Shown here one piece after another: positions 11,822-39,956 of a stretch of DNA of 46,788 nucleotides. Below the pieces are notes generated by a model. The model was not told where the DNA came from. It saw only the letters and a list, made by a program, of their open reading frames with translations, and made no database searches. Source of the DNA: a virus (taxonomy: Duplodnaviria; Caudoviricetes). The translations under genes and the position numbers were made by a program. The DNA lies in IMG/VR virus record IMGVR_UViG_3300045119_000148, positions 1-46,788 of that record. The stretch is one strand, 5' to 3'. Every line of letters starts with the position of its first letter. The first letter of the stretch is position 1.

Positions 11822-14800
11822 CTACCGCACGGGCAACACGTCCTGAACGGGTGCCTGTGACTGGTCCTCGATGTTCCCACCCTGACCGGTGATGAACTGG
11901 CCCGCCGACTTCAGCAGTTCCCCGCCCATCCCCGCGACCTCGCTGACGGTGCGAATGGTGCCGAGTGGGCCGACTGCGTACTGAACGGCATCCATCGCAC
12001 CCTTGGTGTAGTCGATGGGCTTGATGGGTAGACCCTTCGCCTGCAGCGCCTCGTTGTCCAGACCCTGCTCGGCGATACGTCGCACCGGCAGCGAGGCGTT
12101 GGCCGGGATGTCGTTCGGTGTGGCGGGAAACATCATCGACATCAGCAGGAACGCCTGCTTGTTGTCGTCGAGAAACTTCTTCCACGACGGGTCGTTCTGG
12201 CTCTGGACCCTGATGGTGTCACTGATTTCACGGGCCACGTTCCACGCGAGGAACGGCGTGGTCATGCCGAACGGGCGCAGTGCGAGGAAGCGCACCATCT
12301 CGGGCAGGATTTTCCCCCACATGTACGAGGCCGGATACAGCCCGATGTAGGGGTGGTTGATGCTGCGCTCGAAGGCGCTCCGGTCGTGCTTGTAATACTG
12401 GGTCGCGTGGGCTTCCTCCCACCCGGAGCGCACCACCTGCCGTCCAGCCTGCCGCAGCACCTCCTGCTCGTTGGAGTACGGCACGGTCTCGACACCCGGT
12501 CGCTGGAACATGCGGTCCAACTTGGCCTGCATCTGGGGCGACGTGCGGATGGGCGGCATTCCACTCACCGTCCGCTGCTTCTGGGTCAACTGCAGCCAGT
12601 TGCGGAAATGCTCGAAGGCGTTGTTCATGTCGGGGTCGGTGGCCACACCCCGGTTCACCCAGTCCAAGACCTGCTGGACGAAGAACTCCTCCTGCGGCTT
12701 GCCCCACGCGCCGGGGTTCGGTGAGCCCAACCCGGCCCGCATGGCGGTGGCCCGGTTGCGCAACTGGGTGGCGGCGCTCCTGTTGGTGTGCGTGGCAGCC
12801 CGCGTCTCCAGCGCCTGAGCAGCGGTCTCGACATCGGTCGAGTACCGCTCGTACTCCCGCGTGATGGCATCGCGCAGCGACGGGTCCATGCCCGCGATGC
12901 TGAAGACGTGGATGAGTTCGTGCAGCCCGGTCAGGGCGTCGGCGGCTCCGAACCCTCGGACGACAGCGGACTGGGCTCCGGTGGGGGTGGTGGTACCAAA
13001 GACCTGTCCGCCTCGCTTGTCTTCGAGGGTGGTGGTGATGGGGTCACCGAGGACGGCTCGGCGGGTGTTCTTGGGGGCGACTTCGTTGAGCCCCCACTGG
13101 ACACGCTCGTCGTGCGCGGCGCGAAGACGGTCGAGGACTGCCCCATCGGGGGCGACTCCCCGTGATGCAAGACGACTGAGCGTGGCATCGAGATGTCCTC
13201 CCCAATCCGGTTCACCGTTGACGATGGCGGGTCCAGCCTTGTACGTCTTGCCGTAGTCCACCCACATGTCGGTGTCCAGACCCTCTTGGTCGAGCCCCTT
13301 CTGCGCGGCTTCGACCATTGACCTCACATAGTCCTCGTCCACCGTCCCATCGTCGAGCCGGGGCAGCGAGTGCTGGTCGTCGATGAACGAAATCTGCCAC
13401 GTGTGGTTCGGCATCTCGATGGCGGTCGCGCCCCGGATGTCGTCACGGATGGACGCCAGTCCCTGCGCCACGTGCTGCGCATCGCTGAATGACTGCAGGC
13501 TGCTGGACGGGAACGAGAGCGTCACCCGCGCATCGTGGTCGGCAGCATCGACACCCGCCGTGACGGCATCCACCGGGCTGAAGTGCCAGACCTCGCGCTG
13601 GCGCATGACGTACGACATGATGTCGGCGAGGTCGTTGCCCCGTATCGCGCTGCTGAGCATGGTCAGTGGGACCAACGGCTGCGGCGTGTCGGCGTCCCAG
13701 AACCCGATGCCCCGGTCGTCCAGCCCATCCACGACGATGCCGAAGTTGTCGCGCATGTCCTGCATCAGCCCGACCTGCACACCACGCATGAAGGCGTGAC
13801 GCTCGGCCCGGTTGGCTGGCTCGTTGAGCAGGTCGAGGACCGGGTTGGCCCACGACATCGTCGTCCCCTCGGGGAAGTAGATGTTGGCCGGGATGGTGCG
13901 CAACTGGCTGGCCACGTCCTGTGCGGGCATCGAGGTCGCCACCCGGCCACGCACCTCGCGGGCCTTGCCCGCCATCAGCGCCATGTCGGCAGCGGTCCAG
14001 ACCTTGTACCCGCCCAAGCCCTCGGCGTTCGCAGCCTTGGCCATCGCGTTGTAGTAGCCGACGAGGTAGGCGTGCGTCTCGTCGCTCTTCGAGGTGAGGG
14101 TCAGGCCGGTGGTGTCAACGCCGTTCTCCTTCAGGTCAGCCAGCGTCTCGGGCGTGACGTAGCCCGCACCCTCGTACGCCGCGTCGTCCGCAACGATGGG
14201 CATGGACCCGTCCATGCGCCCAATCGCTCGCCGGTTGCTGTTGCCCAAGAGAACGTCCATCGCGTCGTTGATGTCGGGCGGGACGTTGGGCACGTCGAAC
14301 GGGTACTTCAGCCCACGCAGCAGGTGCTGCGTCTGGAGTAGCGCGACCTGCGCATCCTTGCTCTCACGCTCGGCAGCCATCTCCGTGGCCGGGCGGAGCC
14401 CGCGCTGCCACGCCTGCTCCAGCGTATGGATGAAGAGGGTGACCGCGCCCCGCCCACCCCGTGAGGGCATCGCCGCTGCGATGGACGCCAACGCCCGCGT
14501 GTCGTTGCTGTTGAACACCTCGTCGGGGTCGAACCGCACACCATGCTCGTCGGCAGTGTCGGAGGTGTGCATCAACTCTTCGATGCGATAGCGGGTGTCG
14601 TCCCACGCCTCGGAGAAGGACGGCAGTTGGTCCTCGTCGATGACCGCCTTGATGTCCTCCAGCCCCTGCTCGGGCGTGATGCGCCCGAACCTGCGCTGGC
14701 CCACCACGACGGTGCCCTCGGGCGGGCGGGCTGCCTCGGCCTTGGCAATCTCCTCCTGCGCCACCTCGCGCAAGCCCTCCTGCGTCTCGGGTCGGGCACG

Positions 14801-17800
14801 TGTGGTCAGGTCGATGAGCGCCGCCGGGTCGGTGGCGGCAAGGTGCTGGGCGTAGGCGACGTTGCGCTCGTGGATGGGCGGGTCGCCAAGCATCAGGCGG
14901 TTCACGCCCGTGACGCGAGCCTCGCCGTCGGGCACAACCGTGAGGTGGATGATGTTGCCACCACCGTAGGCCCGTGGCTTGTCCTCCCGCCTGATGATGC
15001 GGAAGGGCTGGTCCCTCGGGAGCAGGTGTTCGCCCTCGTAGCCCTCGATGAGGTTCATGTGGTACCCGGCGGGCAGTTCGTAGTGGATGATGACGCCCTG
15101 ATGGTTGGCCCCACTCTGGAACTTGTGGCCACCGCCCTCGGCGAAGTCCATCGCCGACGACTCGTCATTGCTCGTTGAGACGAATGCCGGGTCCTGCAGG
15201 ATTTCACCGGGCTGCTTGTCGAACTCGGGCCGGATGTCGGTGCCCCACTCGTCCATCGCTCGGCTGATGTTGACCCCACGGTGGAACGTCCCCGGCTCGC
15301 GTAGCACGCCCTTCTGGATGGAGTGGTCGAGATACTCGACCAGTTGCTGGATGCGCTCGTCATCGAGGTGGATGGCGTCAGGGTCGAGTTCGAGCCCGCG
15401 CAGGAAGGTGTTGATGTTGGCGTAGATGGAGCCCTTGTAGTCCTCGGTCGCGCCCTGCTCCGCGATGGTGAGCATCTTCTTGAAGTCGATGGTCCACGGC
15501 GAGGTCGCACCCGCCTCACCGCCCTGCTGGAACAGTTCGTCCAGCCACGGCATCTGCTGGTAGCCCTCACGGAGGGCAGGCGTAGGAACCCCCTTCACCT
15601 CACCGACAGCCTGCTGGATGGGGACCCAGCCGTTCTCGGTGTAGACCTCCATCGGGACATCCCCGTAGTTGAGGTCTTGGCTGAGCAGGTAGTCGTGGGA
15701 CTTCTGGCGCTTCAGGTTGGTGGCCGGATGCTCCCGCTCGGCCTCGACTGCGCTGCGGTCAAAGCGGATGAGGTGCTGCGCGGAGGCGTCGTAGTTGGCA
15801 ATGGCACGCAGGGGATTGGTGCCGACCTGCTCGTACTGGGTCCCGATGGCACCAGAGCCGATGCCCTTGGCGGCGAACTTCAGGTTCTCCATCGTCTGCT
15901 CGGTGACGGGAATGTAGAGCAGGTCCCGGTTCTCGGACCCAGCCGTGATGGCATCGACGTGCTTCTGCAACTCGGGCGGCAACGAGTCGGCCACCCCGCC
16001 GTTGATGGAGTGACGGATGAGCCACGTCTTGTACGGCTTGTCGCCACCCTCGTTCTTCAGGATGGCGTGACCGATGTCGGACCGAACGTCGGTCAGCGCC
16101 TGTGGGGGCAACACCCCAGCGTCCACCGCCCAGCGCGGGATGTCATCGAAGTGGAGCCGGATGAACTCCTCCTCGGTGAGGTTCTTGCCAGCGGCTGCTC
16201 CCTGCACGAACGCCCGCGTGGCCTTGATGACGGCATCACGTGCGCGGCGAGTGGCCACCGCCGTCGGCCCGGTCAGTCCCCGGAGATACGTCGCACGGTG
16301 GCCGCGCCAGAACTCATCCACCGTCTGCCCTGTCGCCAGCCGCCAGATGTCCTCGGCTGCCTTGTCGCTGACCTTGCCCACGTGGGTGTCCATCCCGGCA
16401 CGGCTGACCTCGCTCAGCCAGTCGTCCTTGGTCATCGCCCGGAGGTCGCGCTGCAGCGCCTCGCCCGACGCCAGCCCCTCGGACTCCCGTGTGTCCAATC
16501 CCTGCTCGGTGCGAACGTGGTCGAGCAGTTGCTCCACGTCGCCGAACGTGTAGTCGCCCCGCCGGGAGCCGTCGGTGGTGAGACGAATGCGCCCCTGTCC
16601 CACGTTCTTCAGGTTGAGCAGGTCGTGGGTGAGACCAATCGCGTGACCGTCCTTGTCGGCCAGCGACAGGTTGGCTGCCAGCCAGCGTTCGGCAATCTCG
16701 GCCCGGTCCACCGTGCCGTACTCGTAGGCGAGGTCGCCCCAGTTGCGCTCGAACTGGTCACCCCAGATTTCATGGAACGCGGCGTACAGGTTGTCGCCGA
16801 TGATGCGCCGTGCCTCCATGCCAGCGGCTGCCTGCTTGCGCTCGGCGATGGCTGGCTTGGTGCCCTTGATGCGGCCCCAGACACTGCCCGCCCCGAAGTG
16901 GCTGCGGGCCTCGGCGGCTTGGTAGATGCGCATGGCGTTCATCTCGGCGTTCTCAGCCAAGAGACCGTCGGGCTCACGTGAGGCGAACACGTACTGGCGG
17001 ATGGCGTTGTACGTCGCCAGCCCCTGCTGGTACTTCGCGGCGTCCCGGCGCAGCGGCAGGGGGACGCCGCGCATGTAGTCGAGGATGTACGGCTCGACCA
17101 ACTCCATCGACATGAACACCGGGTTCAGCGTGAAGCGCATGAGCGGGTACAACTTCTCCGACAACTGGCCCCAGTAGTTGCCTGCCGCGCCGGGCGCTCG
17201 GGCCTTGACCATGCCGGTGAACTTCTGGGTTGCCCCCACCAGCGACACGTCGCCCTCCATCGCCCGGAGGAAACCCGTGACGACCTGACGCTCGGTGAGT
17301 TTGGAGGCGACGTTGCCGTACACCGACGTGTTGCCCTTCACGTCTTCGAGGACACCGTGAACGGCGTCCATCATCTGGTCGGGCGACATGCCCCGTGGGA
17401 GCAACCGGCCTTCCTGCGCCTCGAACATCAGCGCCTTGAACAGCCTGTCGGCGAGAGCAGGCGGCAGGGCGATGTTGCCCGACTCCTTCGACGCCATGTC
17501 GGTGATGAACCGGCGGCGTTGGTTCCACAGGATGCGCTCGCCCCGGATGCCCCTGAACATCGACATGTTCATGGACTGCCAGCGGCTCACCCGCTTGGCT
17601 GCCGGGATGCCGTCCGCCCAGAACTGCAGCCACGGCTGCGCGTTCTTGATGCCGCCGTCGGCGTTGTGGGTGATACGCCACTGGGCGTCGAGCGGTGCAT
17701 TCTCGGGGATGCCGTTGGCGAGGCCGTACTCGAAGTTCGAGCCGTCCTTCACCCAGTCCTGCAGTTCCTGCGGGATGTCGGTGCGGATGTTCCCGGCTGC

Positions 17801-19828
17801 GTCCTTCAGGTTGATTTCCTGCGGCAGCGACGAGCGGTTGGTATCGAGGTAGTCCCGCACGTCGTGGATGAGGTCGGCGTCCTTGACGGTCTGCCGGTTC
17901 ATCCAGTTGAAGTCGTCGTAGTTCTCGGTGAATGCCCTCACCTTGGCCACGTCGCCAGCCTTGATGGCGGCGTCCAGTTCCTTCACCCGCAGGTTGGTCA
18001 GGGTGCGGGGCGTAATCATCGTGATGTCGTGCGGGTCGATGTCCTTCGGCAGCACGCCTCGGGCAGCAGCATCGTGGATGGCAGCCATCACGTTGGTGTG
18101 CAGCACCTTGCCCTTGGTGTAGTAGTACAGCCCGTGGACGGCCATCGCCATGTCGGCGGAGACCTTGCCCACACGAGCCGCCACCTTGGCTGGGTCCACC
18201 TGCAGGATGGCAGCCAACTTGTTGACGGTCTGCTCGCGCATCTGGTCGGCGGGCAGGGACGCGACCCGGATGTCCTTGGTCTTCTCGACCTGCGTCTCGA
18301 TGTACTTCCCGATGTTGGTGTCGTACGCCCCACCGGCCAACTGCGCCCGCGTGGCCTCGGCGGTGTTCAGGGTCGGGTGCTTGGGGATGGCGTTGACGCG
18401 AGCCGCGTCGTTGGCTGTCTCGCCCGCCACTGTCTCCTGCATCCCGTTCGCGCCCCACGTTCCGACCGCCTCCATGATGCGGTCGCCGCCATCGGTGGCG
18501 AGGTCGTCAGCGATGGACGTGAGGTCGCGCACGACGTTGGGCTTCAGCGCCGCGACGACCGCCGTGGACGCCGCCATGTGCAGGGCTTCCATCGACCGCT
18601 GCGCAGCCCGCGACCCGCTGAAGAAGTTGATGGGGTCGCTGGCCTTGGCAATCTTGTCGGCCACCTTGTAGACGATGTTCTGGGTCGCCGTGTCGCTGAT
18701 GGGACCGAGGGCGCTCGTCCCGATGCGCTCCGAAATCTTCAACTTCAGGTGGTTGGGAACGTCCTCGCCGTTGCCCACACGGTCGAGCAGGTCGTGGTTG
18801 ACGGCCTGCTTCATCACGCTCAGGTCGCCACGCGACAGGTTGACCGCACTCAGGTCTTGCCCGTCCTGCGCCAGACGAGCAAGTTCGCCCACCCGCGTGC
18901 CGTCCCCCGCCAGCGCGGCGACCGTGCTGCCCTCGCGTGCTGCAGCCGACGAGAAAATGCGGGCGATGTCAGCCGTTCCCTCCACGGCACCGGCCACCGC
19001 ACCCACGCCCAGCGATGCCCAGTTCACGGGGTCAGTCAGGATTGACCACACCGTGTTGGCAATCGGGTCGTTCGTGAAGCCGCGCTGTGACAGGACCAGT
19101 TCATCCAAGGCCCGGTCACGGGTCCACTCGCCCGAGTCAATCTTCTGCTGGATGTCGTCGGGCAGCGCCCCACGCGCACCAGACATCCCGGCGTACGTCC
19201 GCTGGATGGCCTCACCGACCAGACCGGGGATGTTGAGGATGGACTGGAACGCCCCGCCCAAGTTGGTCGGTATCTTCAGTGTGTCGCGCAGGATGTACGG
19301 GGTGAACTGCTCGATTTGACTGTTGGCCGCGTCGATGATTGGTGCGAGGAACGGCACGCTCTGGATGCCCACCCCGCCAGCGATGGACAGCGGTGCCTCG
19401 ATGGTCTTGCCGATGTCGGCCCCGATGGTCTGGCCTGCCTCGCCCTGCCCCAAGATGCCGCCGACCGTTGACCCCACCGCACCCAGCAGTCCGGCGAACA
19501 GCCCGCCGGGCGTACTCGGCGAGTAGTACCGGGCCACCGACCCCAGCGGACTGTTGTCCTGCGCCGGGTCGATGGGGATGGGCGAGTTCATGCGCGAGGT
19601 AGAGAGCGGGTCGAGGAGATTGATGTCCTCCTTGCCCACACTAGCGAACTGGCGGACCTGCGTGTTGCCGTCAGCCGGACCGTAGTAGACCGCACTGCCG
19701 CCGTTGCGGGTCGAGACCGGCCCCAAGCCGTACGAACTGGCGGGTGCGTTCGAGCCCGACCCGAAGCCGAACCCCCCACCCGAGGTGGAGGCTGCCGCGT
19801 TCGCGCCCCACGTCCCGCCGAGGGTCAC
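11822..19828 (-). CDS. Giant (2668 aa) polyvalent internal virion/ejection protein with ADP-ribosyltransferase and HExxH metallopeptidase-like domains
   Basis: VIP2-like ART segment YKGSIYANINTFLRG..FHRG..FVSTS..YEGEHLLPRD at about 14930-15460. GLHELIH..EEFF at about 12680-12925. Located in the head module. Confidence 0.75.
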   Translation of the reverse strand: MTLGGTWGANAAASTSGGGFGFGSGSNAPASSYGLGPVSTRNGGSAVYYGPADGNTQVRQFASVGKEDINLLDPLSTSRMNSPIPIDPAQDNSPLGSVARYYSPSTPGGLFAGLLGAVGSTVGGILGQGEAGQTIGADIGKTIEAPLSIAGGVGIQSVPFLAPIIDAANSQIEQFTPYILRDTLKIPTNLGGAFQSILNIPGLVGEAIQRTYAGMSGARGALPDDIQQKIDSGEWTRDRALDELVLSQRGFTNDPIANTVWSILTDPVNWASLGVGAVAGAVEGTADIARIFSSAAAREGSTVAALAGDGTRVGELARLAQDGQDLSAVNLSRGDLSVMKQAVNHDLLDRVGNGEDVPNHLKLKISERIGTSALGPISDTATQNIVYKVADKIAKASDPINFFSGSRAAQRSMEALHMAASTAVVAALKPNVVRDLTSIADDLATDGGDRIMEAVGTWGANGMQETVAGETANDAARVNAIPKHPTLNTAEATRAQLAGGAYDTNIGKYIETQVEKTKDIRVASLPADQMREQTVNKLAAILQVDPAKVAARVGKVSADMAMAVHGLYYYTKGKVLHTNVMAAIHDAAARGVLPKDIDPHDITMITPRTLTNLRVKELDAAIKAGDVAKVRAFTENYDDFNWMNRQTVKDADLIHDVRDYLDTNRSSLPQEINLKDAAGNIRTDIPQELQDWVKDGSNFEYGLANGIPENAPLDAQWRITHNADGGIKNAQPWLQFWADGIPAAKRVSRWQSMNMSMFRGIRGERILWNQRRRFITDMASKESGNIALPPALADRLFKALMFEAQEGRLLPRGMSPDQMMDAVHGVLEDVKGNTSVYGNVASKLTERQVVTGFLRAMEGDVSLVGATQKFTGMVKARAPGAAGNYWGQLSEKLYPLMRFTLNPVFMSMELVEPYILDYMRGVPLPLRRDAAKYQQGLATYNAIRQYVFASREPDGLLAENAEMNAMRIYQAAEARSHFGAGSVWGRIKGTKPAIAERKQAAAGMEARRIIGDNLYAAFHEIWGDQFERNWGDLAYEYGTVDRAEIAERWLAANLSLADKDGHAIGLTHDLLNLKNVGQGRIRLTTDGSRRGDYTFGDVEQLLDHVRTEQGLDTRESEGLASGEALQRDLRAMTKDDWLSEVSRAGMDTHVGKVSDKAAEDIWRLATGQTVDEFWRGHRATYLRGLTGPTAVATRRARDAVIKATRAFVQGAAAGKNLTEEEFIRLHFDDIPRWAVDAGVLPPQALTDVRSDIGHAILKNEGGDKPYKTWLIRHSINGGVADSLPPELQKHVDAITAGSENRDLLYIPVTEQTMENLKFAAKGIGSGAIGTQYEQVGTNPLRAIANYDASAQHLIRFDRSAVEAEREHPATNLKRQKSHDYLLSQDLNYGDVPMEVYTENGWVPIQQAVGEVKGVPTPALREGYQQMPWLDELFQQGGEAGATSPWTIDFKKMLTIAEQGATEDYKGSIYANINTFLRGLELDPDAIHLDDERIQQLVEYLDHSIQKGVLREPGTFHRGVNISRAMDEWGTDIRPEFDKQPGEILQDPAFVSTSNDESSAMDFAEGGGHKFQSGANHQGVIIHYELPAGYHMNLIEGYEGEHLLPRDQPFRIIRREDKPRAYGGGNIIHLTVVPDGEARVTGVNRLMLGDPPIHERNVAYAQHLAATDPAALIDLTTRARPETQEGLREVAQEEIAKAEAARPPEGTVVVGQRRFGRITPEQGLEDIKAVIDEDQLPSFSEAWDDTRYRIEELMHTSDTADEHGVRFDPDEVFNSNDTRALASIAAAMPSRGGRGAVTLFIHTLEQAWQRGLRPATEMAAERESKDAQVALLQTQHLLRGLKYPFDVPNVPPDINDAMDVLLGNSNRRAIGRMDGSMPIVADDAAYEGAGYVTPETLADLKENGVDTTGLTLTSKSDETHAYLVGYYNAMAKAANAEGLGGYKVWTAADMALMAGKAREVRGRVATSMPAQDVASQLRTIPANIYFPEGTTMSWANPVLDLLNEPANRAERHAFMRGVQVGLMQDMRDNFGIVVDGLDDRGIGFWDADTPQPLVPLTMLSSAIRGNDLADIMSYVMRQREVWHFSPVDAVTAGVDAADHDARVTLSFPSSSLQSFSDAQHVAQGLASIRDDIRGATAIEMPNHTWQISFIDDQHSLPRLDDGTVDEDYVRSMVEAAQKGLDQEGLDTDMWVDYGKTYKAGPAIVNGEPDWGGHLDATLSRLASRGVAPDGAVLDRLRAAHDERVQWGLNEVAPKNTRRAVLGDPITTTLEDKRGGQVFGTTTPTGAQSAVVRGFGAADALTGLHELIHVFSIAGMDPSLRDAITREYERYSTDVETAAQALETRAATHTNRSAATQLRNRATAMRAGLGSPNPGAWGKPQEEFFVQQVLDWVNRGVATDPDMNNAFEHFRNWLQLTQKQRTVSGMPPIRTSPQMQAKLDRMFQRPGVETVPYSNEQEVLRQAGRQVVRSGWEEAHATQYYKHDRSAFERSINHPYIGLYPASYMWGKILPEMVRFLALRPFGMTTPFLAWNVAREISDTIRVQSQNDPSWKKFLDDNKQAFLLMSMMFPATPNDIPANASLPVRRIAEQGLDNEALQAKGLPIKPIDYTKGAMDAVQYAVGPLGTIRTVSEVAGMGGELLKSAGQFITGQGGNIEDQSQAPVQDVLPVR

Positions 19829-30726: not shown

Positions 30727-31084
30727 CGACAGCCCGCTGGTGTTCGCCGTCGATGCCAAGCACAGCATCCATGTCAAGCCGCCAGAGCGTCCGGTCTTTC
30801 AGAGTGCACCGGTCAGGAGTCGCATATCCAAGGCGCAGGAGGAGTACGACGCCAAGAGGCGTCCTCAGGCAGCGAAGTTGTACAGACTGCTTAGGGACTG
30901 TGCTGAGAAAGGTTCATCTTGGCGTGAGTGCTGGGCTCTCGGTGAGGGCAATGAGGGCTGGGATGTGGGACCAATCGTCATCTGGCTGCGCTCTAGGAGT
31001 GTGGACATCGAGGCGGTCTACGACCCTGTGCGTGGCGAGACGCGGTTCTACCTGAGGCTCGCTCAGGCTCGCAGTGGACGGTAA
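30719..31084 (+). CDS. Hypothetical protein, possible winged-helix DNA-binding protein
   Basis: The C-terminus (IVIWLRSRSVDIEAVYD..RFYL) resembles a helix followed by a wing. Confidence 0.5.
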   Translation: MSDDSPLVFAVDAKHSIHVKPPERPVFQSAPVRSRISKAQEEYDAKRRPQAAKLYRLLRDCAEKGSSWRECWALGEGNEGWDVGPIVIWLRSRSVDIEAVYDPVRGETRFYLRLAQARSGR

Positions 31085-31150
31085 CCCCTGAGTTACGGTT
31101 CCCCCCACCTCACGTTCTAGAGGGGCAGCGTTCCACACACACACTCGCTT

Positions 31151-31826
31151 GTCACCAAAGGTGGCGGGGGTGGGGATTGAGCGTCAGCGGAGTTTTTGGC
31201 CTCGGCGCGGAGTACATACACAGACCTCGGTCTGTGTATGTATGAGCGCACGGTGAGAGCAACAACGAAGTTGTTGCTCTCACATTCCCTCGTGCCGGAG
31301 CCTATGGCTATAGGCCCTTAGGGCCAATAGCCAATGGCCAATCGGCGATGGGGCTGACAGTCACCGGTAGCCTAGGGAGTCACGGCGACCAATGGACCAA
31401 GGTCCATAGGTCTATGCGCAGGTGCATCCAGTTCCAAGGAACTGGACGCCACGTGTGACTGAGTTCTAAGGAACTCAGTTCAGCCACTGACCGAAGCGGG
31501 GTCTGAAACCCCAGCACCATGTCTACCCCCTTTAGGGGTAGGTCGCCGAACCCTATGTGAGGGCAACACCGTAGGTGTTGAGGCTCTGCTTCCAAATCCT
31601 TCCAATCCTCATGTCATGTCAGTAGCGCCCACTTCCCTCAGGAAGTGGGCGCTACTGCACTGATACTCGGAGGACTACGTCCTCCGTAAGACTTTCGGTG
31701 AGACCAACAAGTGACAAGTCACTTGTCGCGCACATGACCCCAACTCACCCCCTCTGAAGACTACGTCTTCAGGACACTCAGTCCATCAGCCTCCCGCCAG
31801 CCCCCTGTTCTGAGACTACGTCTCAG
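31151..31826. repeat. Array of about 14 near-perfect short-loop palindromes (hairpins/cruciforms)
   Basis: Examples: 31213-31242 (14 bp), 31253-31283 (14 bp, GAA loop), 31427-31446, 31458-31479, 31564-31580 (GTA), 31620-31657 (17 bp), 31668-31686, 31707-31726, 31754-31772, 31810-31826. Confidence 0.9.
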
Positions 31827-31959
31827 GTCGTCGCCGACCGAAAGCCTCGCGCACGTCCCTGCTTGCACGAGAGTCGCGCACAACCCACCCTGCGCTCTTC
31901 GCCCGCGTGACTTTTGGGCGCGTGCATGAGTCGTTCCACGACTGGTACGCCCGTACACG

Positions 31960-32479
31960 TTGGTTGAGCCGTTGACGCCGACCTAGGGCAGCGGTTCCAG
32001 CCACCGACGGGCCACCGGCATGTTGCCGGACCGGGGACGGATGGAAACTCAGGCAAGGCAACGTTCGACCCGACACGAGGTCGCTGCTCGCAGTCCTTCG
32101 GACCGCAGAGCGCCGGGCAACGGACGTTCACCTACCTGACAGAGACGCGAAACACCCTTTGGGTGTTAGGAACCTCGACCGTGCCCACTGCGATAGCAGT
32201 GGGTCGCTGAAGAGGCCGTGGGACATGCCGCCCCCTGACGTAAGTCAGGGCGCTGCCCGGTGAGAGTGCCGGGCGGTCGGAGTCTGCGCCACGGTCGTCA
32301 GACCGTCATGTGAGATGTATGGGTCTTCCGTAGGAAGGGAGAACCGCAAGCCTCGCCGGTTACTGACAGGGTCACGGGTACACCGACATCGAAGATGCCA
32401 CGTCATCCGTGGAAGTAGCGCCAGCAAGTGTGCTGTCCGGTCTGTAAGACCAGACAGATGCGTCACACGAGGCTGCCTC
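31960..32479 (+). ncRNA. Putative large structured non-coding RNA, class unassigned
   Basis: Nested long-range stems, G-U pairs that work on the plus strand, UUCG/GCAA/GUAA loops and no credible ORF. The 5' boundary is uncertain. Confidence 0.6.
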
Positions 32480-32554
32480 AGGGCTCCAGTCCCCACCAAA
32501 GGTGGGGCGAACCCTCTGACGATGACCTCGGGGACGGGGTCGAAAGGGAACCTT
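32469..32554 (+). ncRNA. Type III hammerhead ribozyme-like motif (predicted cleavage after C32479)
   Basis: CUC at 32477-79; stem I AGGG/CCCU; core CUGACGA at 32516-22 plus one inserted U; stem II GACCUCG-GGGA-CGGGGUC; GAAA at 32542-45; stem III CCU/AGG extended by GAGG/CCUU. Confidence 0.6.
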
Positions 32555-32557
32555 TCG

Positions 32558-32797
32558 ATGGCAACGCTCACCGCCGAGTCCTTCGCCGCTGCTGAAGCAG
32601 CGTGGCTCGCCACCAAACCCTGCACGGTCCCTTCGGGACACCGCGCCGGTTTCATGGGGTTCTGCTCTCACTGTGAGACAGATGTCCTCTTCGAGGACAG
32701 CCCGGAGTACGAGGCTCTGTTCCCCGATGCCGACCAGCCCGGCTGTAAGCCGGGTTGCAAGGGACCGAACCCTTGCGGAGAGACCTGCGACATCTGA
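32558..32797 (+). CDS. 79-aa Cys-rich (putative metal-binding) early protein
   Basis: MATLTAESF..C..H..CSHC..CKPGC..C..C. The putative RBS AAAGGG lies within a hairpin, and a 9-bp hairpin (32794-32814) follows the gene. Confidence 0.6.
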   Translation: MATLTAESFAAAEAAWLATKPCTVPSGHRAGFMGFCSHCETDVLFEDSPEYEALFPDADQPGCKPGCKGPNPCGETCDI

Positions 32798-32847
32798 AGC
32801 CCCATAGGGCTTCAGCACACACCCCCATCCCTTCAGGAGGACACGAA

Positions 32848-32937
32848 GTGTCTCAGTGCGAAAGGTCGGACTGCAATCCGGCGACCTGTCCCCATTCCTC
32901 TCACCGCCGACCCAAAGGGTCGAAGCGCACCCACTAG
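32848..32937 (+). CDS. 29-aa Cys/His micro-protein (not separately listed in the ORF track)
   Basis: RBS AGGAGG, GTG start; MSQCERSDCNPATCPHSSHRRPKGSKRTH. Confidence 0.5.
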   Translation: MSQCERSDCNPATCPHSSHRRPKGSKRTH

Positions 32938-32991
32938 CCGAAGGCTAGTCCAACCCTCTGGATTGGCCCCTTAGGGGCCAACGTAGAGCGT

Positions 32992-33042
32992 TTGACTCGC
33001 TCTTGGTGCCACTGGTACAGTGGTGCTATCAATCCCCATCCC
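32992..33042 (+). promoter_or_regulatory. Sigma70-type early promoter with conserved leader
   Basis: TTGACT-18 bp-TACAGT with an extended TG, then 6 nt, then ATCAATCCCCATCCC. Confidence 0.65.
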
Positions 33043-33070
33043 ATTGCCCTAAAGGGCAGAAAGGAACGGC

Positions 33071-34561
33071 ATGGCGAACATCGCCAAACTGCCTGACGGC
33101 ATAGCCGTCGCAGCGAACCCTCCCGGCATGGTGGTGCCCTACGGGCCACACCTGACGGCGGCGTTCGAGGCGACGACCGGCTATGCCATTCTGGCGAAGC
33201 CAGATGGCACGGCTCTGGCCAAGATTGGTGTGACCAATCGGCCTCTCGTTCAACTCGTAGAGTTGGACCCCATCACGGTTCCCTATGTGAACCGGTTCAT
33301 CAGCCCTTCGGGGCTGGTCATCATCAAGGACTGGCGGACCGGGCTCTACCGGACCAAGGTCCGGCGTGGTGGCAAGGCCAAGCGGGCACTGCCTCTGGCA
33401 GTGGTCACGGAGACGCCCAAGGCGGCTTCAACGCACACTGCAGCACCGAAGGTGCAGCAGGACGCACCGAAGATGTCGGCTGGTGCCGTCATCACCGTCA
33501 GTGGCGATACGGAGTATCGCTCGACAATCCCCGGCATGGTCATGCTCCCCAAGGTCACCCTGAAGGGTGCCGGACGGGGCAACACGGACTGTGGCGGCAT
33601 CATCCTGCCCACAGAACAGTTCACTGTTCTGGAAGATGCGTGGCACCTTGCACAGCAGGGAGACCCTGCTGCGGTGCTGCTGACCGGTCCCGCAGGGACC
33701 GCCAAGACGATGCTCGTCAGAGCATTCGCCGCTTATCTCGGTGTCCCCTACCTGAAGGTAGACGCCGGGGCCGTTCGGACTGCCGACGATTGGGCCGGTG
33801 CCTTTAGGCAAGACCCCAACACGAAGACGTGGGCTCACCGCTGGTCGCCTTTGGCGATGGCTCTGCGTGAGGGCAAGCCATGCGTCCTGCACATCGACGA
33901 ACTCACCCGCACAGAGACCCCCGCTGCGCTCAACGCCTTCATGGGTCTGCTCGACGAGACAGGGACCCTGTTGGTCCCTGATGCCAATGCCGTCCTGACA
34001 ATGCCGAAGGGCATTCTGGTGGTGGCAACGGCCAACATCGGGCCAGAGTTCGTCGGAACTCTGCCTCTGGACGGTGCAGTCCGGCAGCGGTTCCCCTACG
34101 GGGTTCGCATGGCCAATCCCAGTGAGGCCAATGAGTCGAAACTCATTGTCAAGCGAACCGGGGTCAGCGACGAAGTCGCTGTGGCTCTGGTCCGCATGGC
34201 CAATCAGCAGCGGCAGCATCGGGACGATGCTCAGCAGTACCCGTCCGGGGCCATCATCAGCACTCGTATCCTGCTTAGCATCGCTAAGCGGATTGCGGTC
34301 CGCCACGCTGACCCCCGCGAGGCTGTCATCTCTGTCCTGCAAGGACAGTTCGACCCCGGCGACGACGCCGCTCTCACCGTGGTCATCGACTCGCAGTTTC
34401 CGAAGAAGCCGGTGGCTACGCCACCGGTGGCTGCCGGTGCTGCCTCGATTGTGACGGAACGTCACTGGTTCAACGGCTCGGGCCCGGCTTGCGCTTACGT
34501 GCTGAGCAACGGCACCACTTGTGGTGCCCCGGCCAAGAGCCCTATCCACTTCGGCTCCTGA
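33071..34561 (+). CDS. MoxR/CobS-like AAA+ ATPase with N-terminal extension
   Basis: Walker A GPAGTAKT, Walker B LHIDELTR, sensor VATAN, arginine finger LDGAVRQRF, and ISTR. Confidence 0.9.
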   Translation: MANIAKLPDGIAVAANPPGMVVPYGPHLTAAFEATTGYAILAKPDGTALAKIGVTNRPLVQLVELDPITVPYVNRFISPSGLVIIKDWRTGLYRTKVRRGGKAKRALPLAVVTETPKAASTHTAAPKVQQDAPKMSAGAVITVSGDTEYRSTIPGMVMLPKVTLKGAGRGNTDCGGIILPTEQFTVLEDAWHLAQQGDPAAVLLTGPAGTAKTMLVRAFAAYLGVPYLKVDAGAVRTADDWAGAFRQDPNTKTWAHRWSPLAMALREGKPCVLHIDELTRTETPAALNAFMGLLDETGTLLVPDANAVLTMPKGILVVATANIGPEFVGTLPLDGAVRQRFPYGVRMANPSEANESKLIVKRTGVSDEVAVALVRMANQQRQHRDDAQQYPSGAIISTRILLSIAKRIAVRHADPREAVISVLQGQFDPGDDAALTVVIDSQFPKKPVATPPVAAGAASIVTERHWFNGSGPACAYVLSNGTTCGAPAKSPIHFGS

Positions 34562-34574
34562 AAGGAGAGCGACA

Positions 34575-35909
34575 ATGGACCTAGAGGTCTTCGACCTCAA
34601 ACTCGGGAAGGGTGCCACGGTGCCCTACATGACCGACGAGTCCAGAGGACTCGTGGCAGTGAAACTGCTGGACGCAGTCCAGACAATCGCTGATGTCCTC
34701 ACCGTCAACGACGGTGGCAAGGGCTGGACGGTGACGTTCGACCCCGGCCTCAACGCCTACACCGACCGCTCGGCCAACCGCAGCATCGTCGTCAGTGGCA
34801 AGCCACTGTTCGACGCCAAGCCGGGGACCCCGCTGGTGGACGTAGCGAAGGTGATGAGTGGGTTCGTGGTCCACGAAGTGGGCCACACCGGACTCGACTT
34901 CTTCACGGCGGTCAAAGACCGCTGGCCGGGCAAGACTCTTCCCCTCACATTGGCCAACATCATCGAGGACGTAGTCCTCGAACTCAGGACGGTGGACCGC
35001 TATCGCGGCTTCGCCGACCACGGTGACGGCAACATCTTCCGCCCCACTCTAGAGTGGGTCGCCGAGAAGACCTCACCGAAGACTCCACTGAAGTGGAGCG
35101 GCTCGACCGGCCACAAGGTCAACGTCACCGGCCAGATTGTCCGCTACCGAGACTTCGTCTCGTTCGACACCGACGAGGTCACCCAGACCCACCTTCGGTG
35201 GGTCGAGGACGAGTGGATGCCGGGTATCACCATCGACCTGACACCCGAAGGGTGTGTCGCCCTCATCGAGCGATGGCTCGACCACGTCATGGCGACCAAG
35301 CAGATGGACGAGCCCACCCCCGAACCCCCGAAGCCGCCGACCACCGATGGTGGTACCGGCTCCGACCAGACCCTCCCGAACGAGGACGAGGACGAGGGCA
35401 AGGGCAGTGGCGAGGGTGGCGACACCGAAGGTGAGGACGGCGACGGTGAGGGCAATCCCGGCGGTGGTGACACCGAAGGTGATGACTCCGACGACGACGA
35501 CTCCACCGAAGGTGGTGGCGACTCCGACGACGACGGCGAGGACGGAACCTCCGGCTCCGAAGACGGCGACGAAGACGGCGAAGGTGGCCAGCCCGGTGAT
35601 GACGGTGACGGAACGTCCCGTTCCGGTGATGGCAACGATGCCGACACCATGAACCGGGTCGATGCTCCGAAGGGAGCAAACGACGGACCGGGCAAAGGTG
35701 GAAGCGGACAGGCGGTGGCCGAGGCTGCCGACGAGAACGAAGTTCTCGACGACTTCGAGCCCGATGACCTCACCGACTCGTTCGACGAGACGGCGAAGCC
35801 GGAAGGCCAGTACGAGCAGCGCCGCCTCAACGAGGCGGAGCAGATGGAGCGCGTCACCACTCGGGTGGACGCCGGTGCATTCGGGAAGATGCGAGTCGTC
35901 TTCAAGTAG
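34575..35909 (+). CDS. CobT N-terminal-like protein with HExxH metallopeptidase motif and acidic linker
   Basis: RBS AAGGAG; HEVGH..ANIIED, followed by a long D/E/G-rich linker. Confidence 0.75.
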   Translation: MDLEVFDLKLGKGATVPYMTDESRGLVAVKLLDAVQTIADVLTVNDGGKGWTVTFDPGLNAYTDRSANRSIVVSGKPLFDAKPGTPLVDVAKVMSGFVVHEVGHTGLDFFTAVKDRWPGKTLPLTLANIIEDVVLELRTVDRYRGFADHGDGNIFRPTLEWVAEKTSPKTPLKWSGSTGHKVNVTGQIVRYRDFVSFDTDEVTQTHLRWVEDEWMPGITIDLTPEGCVALIERWLDHVMATKQMDEPTPEPPKPPTTDGGTGSDQTLPNEDEDEGKGSGEGGDTEGEDGDGEGNPGGGDTEGDDSDDDDSTEGGGDSDDDGEDGTSGSEDGDEDGEGGQPGDDGDGTSRSGDGNDADTMNRVDAPKGANDGPGKGGSGQAVAEAADENEVLDDFEPDDLTDSFDETAKPEGQYEQRRLNEAEQMERVTTRVDAGAFGKMRVVFK

Positions 35910-35939
35910 CCCTCACCGAAGGTGAGAGAAAGGAGAACC

Positions 35940-36749
35940 GTGGCAAGGAAAGAGCGGGACCGGTCCACTGAAGTGGTCCGGTATGAGAGCCGCAAGCCGT
36001 ACATCAATGCCGCCACAGCGGCTGGCATCCAGACCGTGTTCAACAGAACACGGCTCAGCCACCAGACATGGGAGTCCCGTCAGTTGACGGGGCGTCTCGA
36101 TGGTCGGGTGGCATGGCGCAACGATGCTCGCGGCAGCATCGACATCTTCCGTGAACGGAAGCAGCCCTCGCCGACCCGGCTCGACGTTCACATCCTCGTG
36201 GACAGCAGCGGGTCGATGAGCGGGGACCGTATCTGCAGGGCGCAGGACATGGCGGGAACCTTGGTGGATGCGTTCAAGCGCATCCCCACGGTCCGGGTCC
36301 ACGTCTACCAGCACTTCGCCAACAGCGGGGTGACGGAAATCCACCGGGTTTATGAACCCGGTGACAGCCTCGACGGGCTCAATCACATGCCGGAACTCAT
36401 TGCCGGTGGCAATGCCGACGGGTTCGCACTGGAAGCCGTCGGGATGCGTGCCGCTTCGATGAAGCGGCCCGACTGGAAGTCGCTCGTCATCATGGTGTCC
36501 GACGGCTTGCCGTCGGTGAGCGGGGTGGGAGCAACGGCCAACATCCTCGACCACTCGGTCATGGTGACCGCGAACCTGAAGCGCAAGGGCGTGCAGGTCA
36601 TGGCGGTAGCCATCGCTGGTGACAACGCGGCTCACGAGTACATGTACGGGAAGGGTTCGTCGGTCCTGTTCACCGGTGACTGGAACGAACTCAACCGCTC
36701 CTTCGGAGCGGTGTTCGGCAAGGTGCTGTCAACGGCGAAGGTGGTGTGA
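35940..36749 (+). CDS. von Willebrand factor A domain protein (CobT C-terminal-like)
   Basis: RBS AAAGGAG; TGRLD, MIDAS motif ILVDSSGSM, GNADG and MVSDGLP. Confidence 0.9.
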   Translation: MARKERDRSTEVVRYESRKPYINAATAAGIQTVFNRTRLSHQTWESRQLTGRLDGRVAWRNDARGSIDIFRERKQPSPTRLDVHILVDSSGSMSGDRICRAQDMAGTLVDAFKRIPTVRVHVYQHFANSGVTEIHRVYEPGDSLDGLNHMPELIAGGNADGFALEAVGMRAASMKRPDWKSLVIMVSDGLPSVSGVGATANILDHSVMVTANLKRKGVQVMAVAIAGDNAAHEYMYGKGSSVLFTGDWNELNRSFGAVFGKVLSTAKVV

Positions 36750-36910
36750 TGAACCCCGACTTCACCCGCTACGACGAGGGGGTCCCGGTCAAGGACCGGA
36801 CCCCCAAGTTGGCCGCACGAAAGGGCCGGATGAAACTCAATGGTCGCAGCCTGAAGAGGCTGCTCAACGAACGTGCCGCCAAGGCACAGAGAGGCAACCC
36901 ATCCCGATGA
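36749..36910 (+). CDS. 53-aa basic hypothetical protein
   Basis: TGATG overlap with the vWA gene; MNPDFTRYDEG..RGNPSR. Confidence 0.55.
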   Translation: MNPDFTRYDEGVPVKDRTPKLAARKGRMKLNGRSLKRLLNERAAKAQRGNPSR

Positions 36911-37083
36911 ACACCAAGGCGGTCGTCGCCGCCATCGTTGGGACCCAGTTGATACTGGGTCTCATCCTCATTCTCATCCTCATCACCGTCGGCAATCAGG
37001 GAAAGACAAGTGTCTTCCCCTGCTACCAGTCGGACGGGAAAGGTGGGTTCGCATACTCGCCCATCTGCACGAGCCAGCCGTGA
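36907..37083 (+). CDS. 58-aa single-TM membrane protein
   Basis: ATGA overlap; hydrophobic stretch LILGLILILILITV. Confidence 0.6.
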   Translation: MNTKAVVAAIVGTQLILGLILILILITVGNQGKTSVFPCYQSDGKGGFAYSPICTSQP

Positions 37084-37361
37084 GCCCTCGTCGATGGCGA
37101 AAGCCATTGCCCCCACCACCAGTGGCCGAAGGCCAGACCGAGGCATTCGATGCCGACGGCTTTGACCTGATGGACCCGAAGCCCGAGGTCGAATACATGT
37201 GCCGGGAGTGTTACTCCCGGCGCATCGTGGGACCAATCACCAAGACTGTTGACCCTCGTTGGGTCGGCGGTACCTGTCTGGACTGCGGCGAACGAGTCAT
37301 CGCCAACGTCCGCCCCATCCCGAAGGAGGTCACCAAGGGTGACGACACCGACCAAGGCTGA
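37080..37361 (+). CDS. Zinc-ribbon protein (93 aa)
   Basis: GTGA overlap; CREC..CLDC. Confidence 0.6.
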   Translation: MSPRRWRKPLPPPPVAEGQTEAFDADGFDLMDPKPEVEYMCRECYSRRIVGPITKTVDPRWVGGTCLDCGERVIANVRPIPKEVTKGDDTDQG

Positions 37362-38004
37362 ACAAGCAGCCGACCTCGACCGCTTCGTAGAAGAGGGTCG
37401 AGAAGCAGCAGCACGGGCCACGGTCCTGATGGACCGTGACCCGAAACTCCCGTACATCAGCGCCTACATCATCGCCCGCGACATGATGGGCAGTGACCGG
37501 TCACTGCAGTGGATGCGCGAGGGCATGGAGTGGGACGAAGCCGAACGGTGGTGCGGTTCCTACGGACGGCTCGACCTCAGGGTCAGAGCCCTCGAAGAGG
37601 GGCTCATCACCGAGGTTCAGGCGTACGAGGGGCTGGCCTCGGCTTGGTCACACAGTGACCCCGACGACACCGACCCCCGGTTCCTCACCCTGTGGGTGGA
37701 AGCGTTCGCTGCCAACAGGCAGCGGTACCTTCGGGACCACACCGACAAGCGACTGCCGAACGGCAGTCGGCTGACCATCTATCGCGGTCAGGACGAGGAC
37801 CAGTCCTTCGGACTGTCGTGGTCGCTGAACCGCAAGACGGCGGAGAAGTTCGCCAACGGTGCCGCCACCCGTGAGGCCAACCGTGGTGGTGTGGTCTACA
37901 CGGCGGTCGTTGACCGCCGCGATGTCATGGGCTACATGCCCGGACGTGGTGAGGCCGAGGTCATCGTGAACCCTGACGATGTCAGGGATGCAGGGCTCCG
38001 ATGA
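37339..38004 (+). CDS. ADP-ribosyltransferase-fold protein (R-S-E type)
   Basis: RBS AAGGAGG; TIYRG, GLSWSLNRKTAEKFA and RGEAEVIV. Confidence 0.65.
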   Translation: MTTPTKAEQAADLDRFVEEGREAAARATVLMDRDPKLPYISAYIIARDMMGSDRSLQWMREGMEWDEAERWCGSYGRLDLRVRALEEGLITEVQAYEGLASAWSHSDPDDTDPRFLTLWVEAFAANRQRYLRDHTDKRLPNGSRLTIYRGQDEDQSFGLSWSLNRKTAEKFANGAATREANRGGVVYTAVVDRRDVMGYMPGRGEAEVIVNPDDVRDAGLR

Positions 38005-38072
38005 GCGGTCGGACCTGCCGCTTCTGCGGCTACTGGACCAAGGGTCGGCACTGCCAGTGGTGCGGTAAGTAG
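38001..38072 (+). CDS. 23-aa CxxC-CxxC micro zinc-finger (not in ORF track)
   Basis: ATGA overlap with the ART stop; MSGRTCRFCGYWTKGRHCQWCGK. Confidence 0.5.
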   Translation: MSGRTCRFCGYWTKGRHCQWCGK

Positions 38073-38127
38073 GCGGACTCTGTCCGCTTCGGAGCCCGTA
38101 GCCAACAACAGCAGAACATTTGTTCTC

Positions 38128-38176
38128 TTTGCCACTCACTACCCGTAGGGTATAGTGGCCCCATCAATCCCATCCC
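38128..38176 (+). promoter_or_regulatory. Second sigma70-type early promoter with the same leader
   Basis: TTGCCA-16 bp-TATAGT, then 6 nt, then ATCAATCCCATCCC. Confidence 0.6.
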
Positions 38177-38195
38177 GCAGGAAGGAACGCACACC

Positions 38196-38384
38196 ATGCG
38201 CCACACCACACAGCCGAACGGGTCACGTGACCTCAATCGCCTAACTCTCACCACCGGTCGGCGAACGGAGCCCCGACTCTACATGGCTCACCCTATGGGT
38301 GAGACCAAGCGGAGGTCGTGGTTGCCGGTCATCTTCGTCATCGCGGTGGTCGTCATCATCGGCCTCGCCGGAATGTCCCGATGA
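38196..38384 (+). CDS. Small membrane protein
   Basis: RBS GAAGGA; C-terminal TM helix. Confidence 0.6.
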   Translation: MRHTTQPNGSRDLNRLTLTTGRRTEPRLYMAHPMGETKRRSWLPVIFVIAVVVIIGLAGMSR

Positions 38385-38581
38385 AGGGCCGACCTTCGGT
38401 CGCCAACGAGGGCAGAGTCTGCATCCTCGTGCCCGACCACGGACCCTCGCTCATCATGCGGAGCGGGCGGGAGTGGTGCCCTCATCAGCAGCACGACGGG
38501 CTTGGTCGTCGCAAAGCGACGACGCCGTGGCTGGACAAGCAGGTCACCGATGACTCGGCTGACCGACCTGACGCAGCCTGA
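38381..38581 (+). CDS. Hypothetical protein (66 aa)
   Basis: ATGA overlap; C..DH..WCPH motif. Confidence 0.5.
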   Translation: MKGRPSVANEGRVCILVPDHGPSLIMRSGREWCPHQQHDGLGRRKATTPWLDKQVTDDSADRPDAA

Positions 38582-39956
38582 ACTCGATGTCGTTCTGCTG
38601 CTCGCACAGGGGAGGGTGACAGCAAGTGCTGTCACCCTCGCTGCTGACCTGTGGCGGACGACCGACACATGGCTGGCCGAGGACCCGTACCCGCTCATCA
38701 CCTACATCCTCGACTCGTTATCGAGTCGAGGACTGGTGCGCTTCCGACTGGCCGCGCCGAAGGATGCCATCCACTCGATGGACTTCCCGATGGACATTCG
38801 TCTCACCCCGAAGGGGTGGGAACTACTCGGCTACTCGCACAAGACAGCCGAGGTCGGGTCGCGTGGACGGCATGAGCGCGAGCCCATCCCCGGCGACCTC
38901 ACCGACTACCTCAACCACAAGTACCACTCCGAAGGAGGTGCAATCGAAGTCGAGGATTTCCCTACCCACCGTGACCGTTTCCCCCACCACGAACACATGT
39001 ACGGAGTACCCATCCTCATGGCAAACACAGCAACCCATCCCAAGCCACGGCGTTCACGCGCCGAGCGTCTTGCAGACCCTACGGTTCTGCAAGACCCGGA
39101 CGGTGACGGCTCGCGTGGCTACATCCGCGTGACCGCAGACATGGAAGCGATGGTCATAGCCGCTCGCTCGCGCATGGGCACCGTCTCCTACGGAGACGTT
39201 GCCGAAGCCGTCGGTCTGCCCGAACGGACCATCCGCTACATCCTCACCGACCTGCCCCGACTCCGTCGGGCCAACGGCGGTGATGAGCGGCTGGAGAAGT
39301 CGCTCAAAGAGCGAGTGTTCGCCACCATCGAAGTCCTCGGTGAGGTCAAGGACGTAGCGGAACTGCGCCGCATCCTTGGCATGGCCGACCCTGAGCATGA
39401 CGTGATGCACGTGCTGCATTCTCTACACACACAGGGCCGCATCGACTTCACCGAACGTGGCACAGGCAATGGCGACACGACCGTCATCCACATCCGGCCT
39501 ACGAAGAAGGGCACACGACGCCTGACCCAGACGCAGGTCGATGCCCTTCCAGAAATCGTGGCGGAGCGACTGCCCGAAGCAGTCCAGCCGCTGCCGGTCA
39601 TCAGCCGGGAAGAGGAAGAGCGGGCAATCAGCGCCGCTCACAACGCAGAGACCGGGTTCGAGGCGACAACGCCGGACACCCCAGCCACAGCGCCGTCCGC
39701 ACCCGAACCCGAGAGCGAAGGATACCCACTGCTCGACGCCCTGTTGGACCGAGAGCGCACACGACTCGACGGTGACAGCAAGGGCATGGCCTTCGTCGTC
39801 GCAGCCGAGGCAATCCAAGCCATCGACCCCGATACCGCACGCTCCCTGATGGAGAAGGCGAAGCAGTACGACGTACCGTTCCCCTCACCCATCGAGCAGG
39901 AGTACATCCGCTATGTGGCAACGCATCCGCCAGTTGTGGTCGCCGATGAGCAGTGA
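38550..39956 (+). CDS. Multi-HTH DNA-binding protein, probable transcriptional regulator
   Basis: wHTH-like segments LDSLSSRGLVRF..IRLTPKG and LHSLHTQGRIDF, and the HTH SYGDVAEAVGLPERTIRYIL. Confidence 0.65.
   Translation: MTRLTDLTQPELDVVLLLAQGRVTASAVTLAADLWRTTDTWLAEDPYPLITYILDSLSSRGLVRFRLAAPKDAIHSMDFPMDIRLTPKGWELLGYSHKTAEVGSRGRHEREPIPGDLTDYLNHKYHSEGGAIEVEDFPTHRDRFPHHEHMYGVPILMANTATHPKPRRSRAERLADPTVLQDPDGDGSRGYIRVTADMEAMVIAARSRMGTVSYGDVAEAVGLPERTIRYILTDLPRLRRANGGDERLEKSLKERVFATIEVLGEVKDVAELRRILGMADPEHDVMHVLHSLHTQGRIDFTERGTGNGDTTVIHIRPTKKGTRRLTQTQVDALPEIVAERLPEAVQPLPVISREEEERAISAAHNAETGFEATTPDTPATAPSAPEPESEGYPLLDALLDRERTRLDGDSKGMAFVVAAEAIQAIDPDTARSLMEKAKQYDVPFPSPIEQEYIRYVATHPPVVVADEQ

Follow-up and report, generated by a model that had tools for sequence, protein, structure and literature searches.

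That a phage genome has a real type III hammerhead ribozyme between a large structured RNA and a small gene is strongly supported: across relatives the core is conserved and each of the three stems covaries. The ribozyme likely cleaves after C32479, which would give the large RNA its 3′ end and the small gene a separate mRNA; judging from the sequence, we put the probability of this reading at roughly 0.6.

The viral record, referred to below as the window, is 46,788 bases long (99% complete by CheckV, GC ~65%). Its minus strand has portal and major head genes, and its plus strand has genes for a primase, a MoxR-type AAA ATPase and VWA proteins. Near the portal and head genes, minus-strand positions 11822-19828 encode a probable virion protein of 2668 aa, inside which lies an ADP-ribosyltransferase domain (PF03496, E 5e-8). 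The ribozyme region is a 2-kb gap from an ORF end at 31084 to the AAA gene start (Table 1). Searching an annotated phage collection with blastn gave no match.

Using the AAA gene as anchor, 48 loci encoding homologues of its protein were gathered, comprising 29 of a close clade (best-segment AAA identity of at least 46% over a long match), 16 distant loci (27-45%) and 3 short spurious matches. The hammerhead was found in all 18 close-clade loci with at least 500 bases upstream of the AAA gene, at 214-736 bases from that gene; the remaining 11 of the 29 have shorter upstream sequence, gave no match and are uninformative for its presence. Ten distant loci have 900 or more upstream bases; one of them, L120, has a hammerhead, of the canonical GUA kind. 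The window and the 18 clade loci were reduced to 11 distinct hammerhead versions.

Table 1. Features at and around the predicted ribozyme, in window positions; the last row lists hammerheads found elsewhere.
Feature	Position	Strand	Remark
Conserved core of uncatalogued structured non-coding RNA	31974..32421	+	would end at 32479 after cleavage
Stem III 5′ strand (C16.3, C16.2, U16.1) and C17	32476..32479	+	U32478-C32479; predicted cut 32479/32480
Stem I (AGGG 32480-83/CCCT 32512-15), internal loop, cap hairpin 32491-32507	32480..32515	+	
UCC in stem I internal loop	32485..32487	+	predicted pseudoknot partner of loop II GGA (32532-34)
Core CUGACGA (32516-22) and extra U32523 between A9 and G10.1	32516..32523	+	
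Stem II (32524-30/32535-41), 7 bp including one U-G; G10.1-C11.1; loop GGGA	32524..32541	+	
G12-A13-A14-A15.1 (GAAA 32542-45) and stem III 3′ strand, GAAAGGGA	32542..32549	+	doubles as likely Shine-Dalgarno of ORF 32558-32797
Competing 8-bp hairpin masking GAAA and Shine-Dalgarno	32540..32558	+	
79-aa Cys-rich ORF, first gene of predicted 3′ product	32558..32797	+	homologues in L005, L090
29-aa Cys/His peptide ORF	32848..32937	+	motif directly 3′ of ribozyme in L095, L097, L098
Sigma-70-type promoter-like site, extended -10, ahead of MoxR operon	32992..33021	+	
MoxR-type AAA ATPase gene	33071..34561	+	anchor for gathering relatives
Compact extra-U type III hammerheads, unrelated viral contigs	L059, L060, L069, L074, L079, L081, L082, L084, L085		

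Hammerhead identity and anatomy

The original prediction had described a hammerhead-like type III element, and its coordinates for U16.1-C17, the stems, the core, the extra U and GAAA were all verified. Type III topology is present, with loops closing stems I and II and stem III open. The core, on whose conservation that prediction had staked its assignment, is intact in the window and in 11/11 distinct homologous versions when compared with the consensus given in the accessible text of PMC3088659 (C3 U4 G5 A6 N7 G8 A9, G12 A13 A14 A15, U16 H17). The core-flanking pairs 1.1-2.1, 10.1-11.1 and 15.1-16.1 are each formed in 11/11 versions, with covariation: the cut-adjacent pair 1.1-2.1 is A-U in 4, U-A in 3 and G-C in 4, and next to the invariably paired U16.1-A15.1, positions III.2 and III.3 switch from C-G to G-C in 2/11.

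A descriptor for type III/type I hammerheads (stem I of at least 4, stem II of at least 4 and stem III of at least 3 pairs, one optional extra base after A9), run as originally suggested, matched solely the site at 32476-32549 in the 46.8-kb window and gave no match in 100 dinucleotide shuffles of it. With the core as anchor, all 132 stem cells (4 bp of stem I, 5 bp of stem II and 3 bp of stem III in 11 related versions, so that the cells are not independent events) pair with varying letters, while shuffles gave a mean of 96 and a maximum of 109 in 5000. An unguided MAFFT alignment paired 96.3% of the hammerhead cells with 21 two-sided changes; slid controls paired 28-56%, and none of 500 shuffles equalled the value. 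Upholding the type III identity rests on this core conservation and three-stem covariation. A second model match at 14920-15007 (E 1e-4) was rejected, since it has no stem II and is antisense to a virion gene.

The element might instead be a chance union of a Shine-Dalgarno sequence with two hairpins of the local array. The region holds 10-20 perfect hairpins per kb, and Rfam hammerhead models do not match: no hammerhead was reported at the locus at E≤10, nor with RF00008 (Hammerhead_3) alone, the gathering threshold not being reached. However, CUGAYGA is invariant, the motif is kept where GG does not follow GAAA (the L087 group), and stems I and III are not local hairpins; because these two stems covary, a Shine-Dalgarno sequence plus local hairpins was ruled out as the cause, and we regard a chance origin as extremely improbable.

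In the window, stem III runs as 3 pairs, a mismatch, a pair, a mismatch and 4 pairs. The inner 3 bp of the stem as first drawn are conserved, but its outer GAGG/CCUU part is not, and the fourth position (III.4) pairs in just 6/11 versions; by this comparison the conserved stem III is 3 bp. A CUC site and an extra U after A9 occur together in 9/11 versions, the other 2 having a GUC site, no extra base after A9 and a 1-nt bulge after G10.1. CUC sites cleave more slowly than GUC. They are nevertheless permitted, as the original prediction held, because the NUH consensus in the accessible text of PMC3088659 allows them; no mention of CUC sites was found in the accessible part of PMC1636495. The strict consensus bars an insertion between A9 and G10.1, and U32523 departs from it. 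We read this base as the mark of a variant and not as an exclusion, because the site tolerates insertions in natural hammerheads, a point on which the original prediction agrees with what is available of a review of the CChMVd (+) hammerhead, in which a U at this place raised the cleavage rate 3-4-fold (PMC3705267, citing De la Pena and Flores 2001).

Two features absent from the original prediction emerged, an overlap with the Shine-Dalgarno sequence (see below) and a likely short pseudoknot between loop II and stem I. Between loop II and the 5′ strand of the internal loop in stem I, complementarity extends over at least 3 bp in 8/11 versions (p=0.02) and over 2 bp in the other 3 (L090, L107, L108). 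The letters vary, with UCC/GGA in the window and CCA/UGG, GGC/GCC, AUGC/GCAU and AGCG/CGCU in other versions, and the summed length gave a permutation p of 0.0046 on 11 versions and 0.006 on 8 lineages. Stem I-stem II pseudoknots are a known tertiary contact, reported for ~40% of the phage and prophage examples in the accessible text of PMC3088659.

A pattern for the extra-U core had 32 viral matches. Of these, ten give a perfect or clade-type type III hammerhead when folded (the contig of L005 and nine unrelated ones, Table 1), one is a poor long-range match and 21 do not fold. Because nine unrelated contigs carry folding examples, the extra-U variant is not limited to the clade; its association with CUC in those contigs is partly imposed by the search pattern. 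At least four of the unrelated hammerheads were checked with Rfam at E≤1 and gave no match. Rfam being blind to the variant, similar phage ribozymes are therefore probably undercounted.

The large structured RNA upstream

The original prediction had placed a large structured RNA ahead of the ribozyme, and the region does contain a covarying non-coding structure. Shared motifs span 400-510 bases ahead of the cut in homologues, and the element is taken to be a large RNA of about 450-510 nt; upstream of 31974, toward its 5′ end, the alignment is poor. In a 13-sequence alignment, 19/38 predicted pairs show two-sided changes and 96.1% of cells pair, compared with 27-45% in slid controls, although scoring the structure on the alignment that yielded it favours the result. 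When the halves were realigned, two long irregular helices were obtained, with 14/32 and 15/26 covarying pairs. The RNA also has probable pseudoknots. Alternation among U-G, U-A and C-G, with its U-G wobbles, indicates an RNA on the plus strand, and because similarity is equal in all six reading frames no conserved protein is encoded there. A search for a helix closing the 5′ part of the RNA onto the cut site gave none that was credible, just a 3-bp helix, and no promoter that would drive the large RNA was identified.

A model of the 3′ domain matched 7/7 further clade loci containing the region (one of them cut off); of the distant loci and unrelated hammerhead loci searched, none matched. 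A 16-base motif of the RNA had 44 matches in viral contigs, 1 of them homologous, and a pattern for the RNA core had 5 viral matches (1 homologous) and 35 genome matches (none credible). Two similar-looking matches from Anaerolineae were set aside as weak (E 0.04-0.06) and apparently within a protein-coding gene on the opposite strand. A clade-style hammerhead pattern had 24 viral matches, and solely L184, the same contig as L005, had the RNA domain with it.

Rfam returned no family match for 31000-33200 at E≤10 or for 14 loci (10 of them clade members) at E≤1. Among specific candidates, eight group II models, covering group II and CP group II introns, had no match at the locus, and a descriptor found no domain 5 with an AGC/CGC triad at a shared position in 18 loci; RF00010 (RNase P RNA type A) did not match the upstream RNA, nor did the models of GOLLD, ROOL or any other Rfam large RNA. 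By these searches the element represents a family of large structured RNAs that Rfam does not contain.

Predicted cleavage, competing folds and the early genes

In the reading that we favour, a single transcript would span the large RNA and run into the ribozyme, which would likely fold during transcription, ahead of completion of the competing hairpin at 32540-58, assisted by the extra U and by a pseudoknot of 3 bp between loop II and stem I. The 3-bp stem III would let the products separate at once. Hammerhead cleavage leaves a 2′,3′-cyclic phosphate and a 5′-OH; the upstream RNA would thus keep the cyclic phosphate, and the mRNA would receive a 5′-OH end with a structured leader. The last conserved motif of the RNA (AGTAGC) lies 57-67 nt before the cut in 17/18 loci and 33 nt before it in one, and the first downstream ORF belongs to five unrelated types, mostly small and Cys-rich. 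With the spacing to the upstream RNA near-fixed and the downstream gene variable, 3′-end processing of the RNA is therefore favoured.

The first ORF in the window, of 79 aa, belongs to no Pfam or PHROG family. Relatives carry the Cys/His motif of the 29-aa peptide in shuffled contexts, in some as an ORF by itself and in others fused at a C-terminus. The motif CCCCATCCC precedes early-gene ribosome-binding sites in the window (32823-32831 and 33034-33042) and in relatives, and in the GUC subtype it lies directly 3′ of the ribozyme. Because a promoter-like site precedes the MoxR operon, this operon need not be in the ribozyme transcript; -10 boxes resembling the site occur in many relatives, and it may drive the AAA operon separately.

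Alternatively, the ribozyme could serve to give the early mRNA a standard 5′-OH structured leader, as other phage hammerheads do, the upstream RNA being a neighbour with a 3′ end of its own. A start codon follows G12 by 11-29 nt in all 11 versions. In unrelated viral contigs, too, type III hammerheads with the extra U precede genes, with the RNA domain absent in the loci searched. In the distant locus L120, early genes are preceded by a type III hammerhead of the canonical GUA kind (L120:266-350) and the large-RNA model has no match, and so the ribozyme can exist without the large RNA. The halovirus HF1/HF2 hammerhead, according to the accessible text of PMC3088659, precedes a start codon by 13 nt, and a 5′ end has been mapped close to its cut. 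Nevertheless, the near-fixed spacing with swapped downstream genes speaks against this account, as does a plus-strand search between the large RNA and the ribozyme in which no terminator-like site was found. We consider it unlikely as the ribozyme's role, although a leader and RNA processing are not mutually exclusive.

The ribozyme core also coincides with what is likely the Shine-Dalgarno sequence of the next gene. In 9/11 versions an ATG or GTG comes after GAAAGG, 11-19 nt from G12 (16 nt in the window), and GAAAGG probably has this function in all nine; the two GUC versions (5 loci) have a separate Shine-Dalgarno sequence and a start codon 28-29 nt after G12. Because stem III occupies Shine-Dalgarno bases, uncleaved RNA in the active fold would be poorly translated. 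The main function could accordingly be conceived as a translation switch, in which ribozyme fold, masking hairpin and ribosome compete for the same bases, control of the small gene lying either in cleavage or in a ligand of the upstream RNA. The overlap in 9/11 versions, which recurs in the unrelated L081 and L084, is consistent with a switch. So is the recurrence of the masking hairpin in L095 and L106 as well as the window; in these three, the first five Shine-Dalgarno bases of the 3′ product have a predicted unpaired probability of 0-0.04. Against it stand the two GUC versions with their separate Shine-Dalgarno sequence, the lack of the masking hairpin in 6/11 versions, including the nearest relative L005 (6-bp form in 3, the window among them, 3 bp in 2), and the likeness of this hairpin to the surrounding mini-hairpin array; moreover, GAAA followed by GG yields a Shine-Dalgarno sequence almost free. 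A switch as the main function is quite improbable on this balance.

The original prediction had doubted the activity of the window copy, and this doubt stands, as ViennaRNA favours competing folds. In these calculations, in which pseudoknots are not modelled, the hammerhead fold lay 0.5-3.5 kcal/mol above the ensemble in minimal constructs (window 2.5) and 0.5-6.6 kcal/mol above it with flanks (window 4.6 and 6.6, the latter the worst of the 11 versions). The minimum-energy fold of the window pairs 32478-83 with 32514-19 and 32542-47 with 32551-56, masking both core strands. Such misfolding means that cleavage would need to occur during transcription or with assistance; parts of the traps are located 3′ of the ribozyme, which leaves an interval for co-transcriptional folding. 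One could also suppose a functional family of which the window copy is slow or inactive through misfolding. The burial of both core strands fits this supposition, as does L005, which has neither trap; however, all core bases and stems of the window copy are intact, and L087 and L093 carry similar penalties yet are conserved, which makes a crippled copy very unlikely.

The masking hairpin resembles a wider pattern of hairpins. Perfect hairpins with stems of at least 6 bp number 11-19 per kb at 31-38 kb, versus 0-7 elsewhere in the window. The array spans ~31000-39000 (8 kb), takes in non-coding DNA and at least 5 genes, and fades with distance; many of its hairpins have a C-GNA-G triloop, on one strand or the other. 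The AAA gene has 15 triloop hairpins, whereas 100 synonymous-codon shuffles averaged 1.0 and never exceeded 3. Between 11 and 18 were counted in each of 15 AAA genes of the clade; the array is common to the close clade and weak in distant relatives. Of 216 triloop hairpins in the clade genes, 70 have GNA on the coding strand and 57 on the other, and G-U counts are 30 vs 27. Because GNA loops occur on both strands without G-U bias, the array appears to act at the DNA level rather than the RNA level, and because the stem I cap and the competing hairpin both fit its design, neither need mean anything at the RNA level. At the array start, positions 31116-31340 form a block conserved in 8 aligned clade members, with a TCTAGAG motif, a CA run, a hairpin, a G run, a 14-bp palindrome and CCTATGG-like repeats; this block is a candidate genome end, packaging site or origin.

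A broader proposal is offered tentatively, at less than even odds: the upstream element would be a new class of large ornate phage RNA (~450-510 nt) with a function of its own, its 3′ end produced by a dedicated hammerhead that doubles as the ribosome-binding-site gate of the first early gene, at a hairpin-coated, first-entering end of the genome.

Comparison with known systems

Large structured RNAs are rare, and often catalytic or structural. A resemblance of some motifs of the upstream RNA to group II domains I and III led to a comparison with these introns. In size and in its long irregular helices this RNA is like group II and CP group II introns, as far as these are described in the accessible text of PMC8637638; unlike them it has neither a conserved domain 5 catalytic triad nor an Rfam group II match. 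GOLLD and ROOL, in what is available of PMC5737381 and PMC12286853, are likewise phage-encoded, multi-helix RNAs of several hundred bases. They lie near tRNAs, whereas the window has none, and the accessible part of PMC5737381 mentions no terminal ribozyme for either.

Among hammerheads, the closest comparison is with the intergenic type III ribozymes of phages and prophages, which are described as cutting polycistronic RNA and were shown to be active (Perreault et al., 2011; PMC3088659, accessible text). The present ribozyme shares with these the core consensus, type III topology, a position between phage genes near a start codon and a proposed role in processing polycistronic RNA; its predicted stem I/II pseudoknot would be a further likeness. 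Unlike those described in that text, it is a single copy tied to a large structured RNA, has an extra U9a, a 3-bp stem III and a long stem I with an internal loop that RF00008 misses, and has its core over a Shine-Dalgarno sequence. Four 9-letter core strings had no match in 11 supplementary files of that paper, in which gapped alignments could mask matches. The CChMVd (+) hammerhead also carries an additional nucleotide between A9 and G10.1; in contrast to the phage ribozyme it serves viroid replication, its natural residue is A, and its tertiary contact is loop-loop (PMC3705267, accessible text).

In the literature searched, largely open-access papers, there was no account of the present upstream RNA, of a hammerhead ending a large phage RNA or of a natural core overlapping a Shine-Dalgarno sequence. 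Phage hammerheads and the extra U were already known, and it is the coupling to a large new RNA that was not found in print. The purpose of self-cleaving ribozymes in phages and bacteria is called an open question in the accessible parts of two reviews (PMC6155905, PMC6765202). In the present case a specific substrate can be seen, as a conserved large RNA lies at a near-fixed distance from the cut; this makes a defined ribozyme role testable, and a natural hammerhead core that is also a Shine-Dalgarno sequence would parallel engineered ribozyme translation switches.
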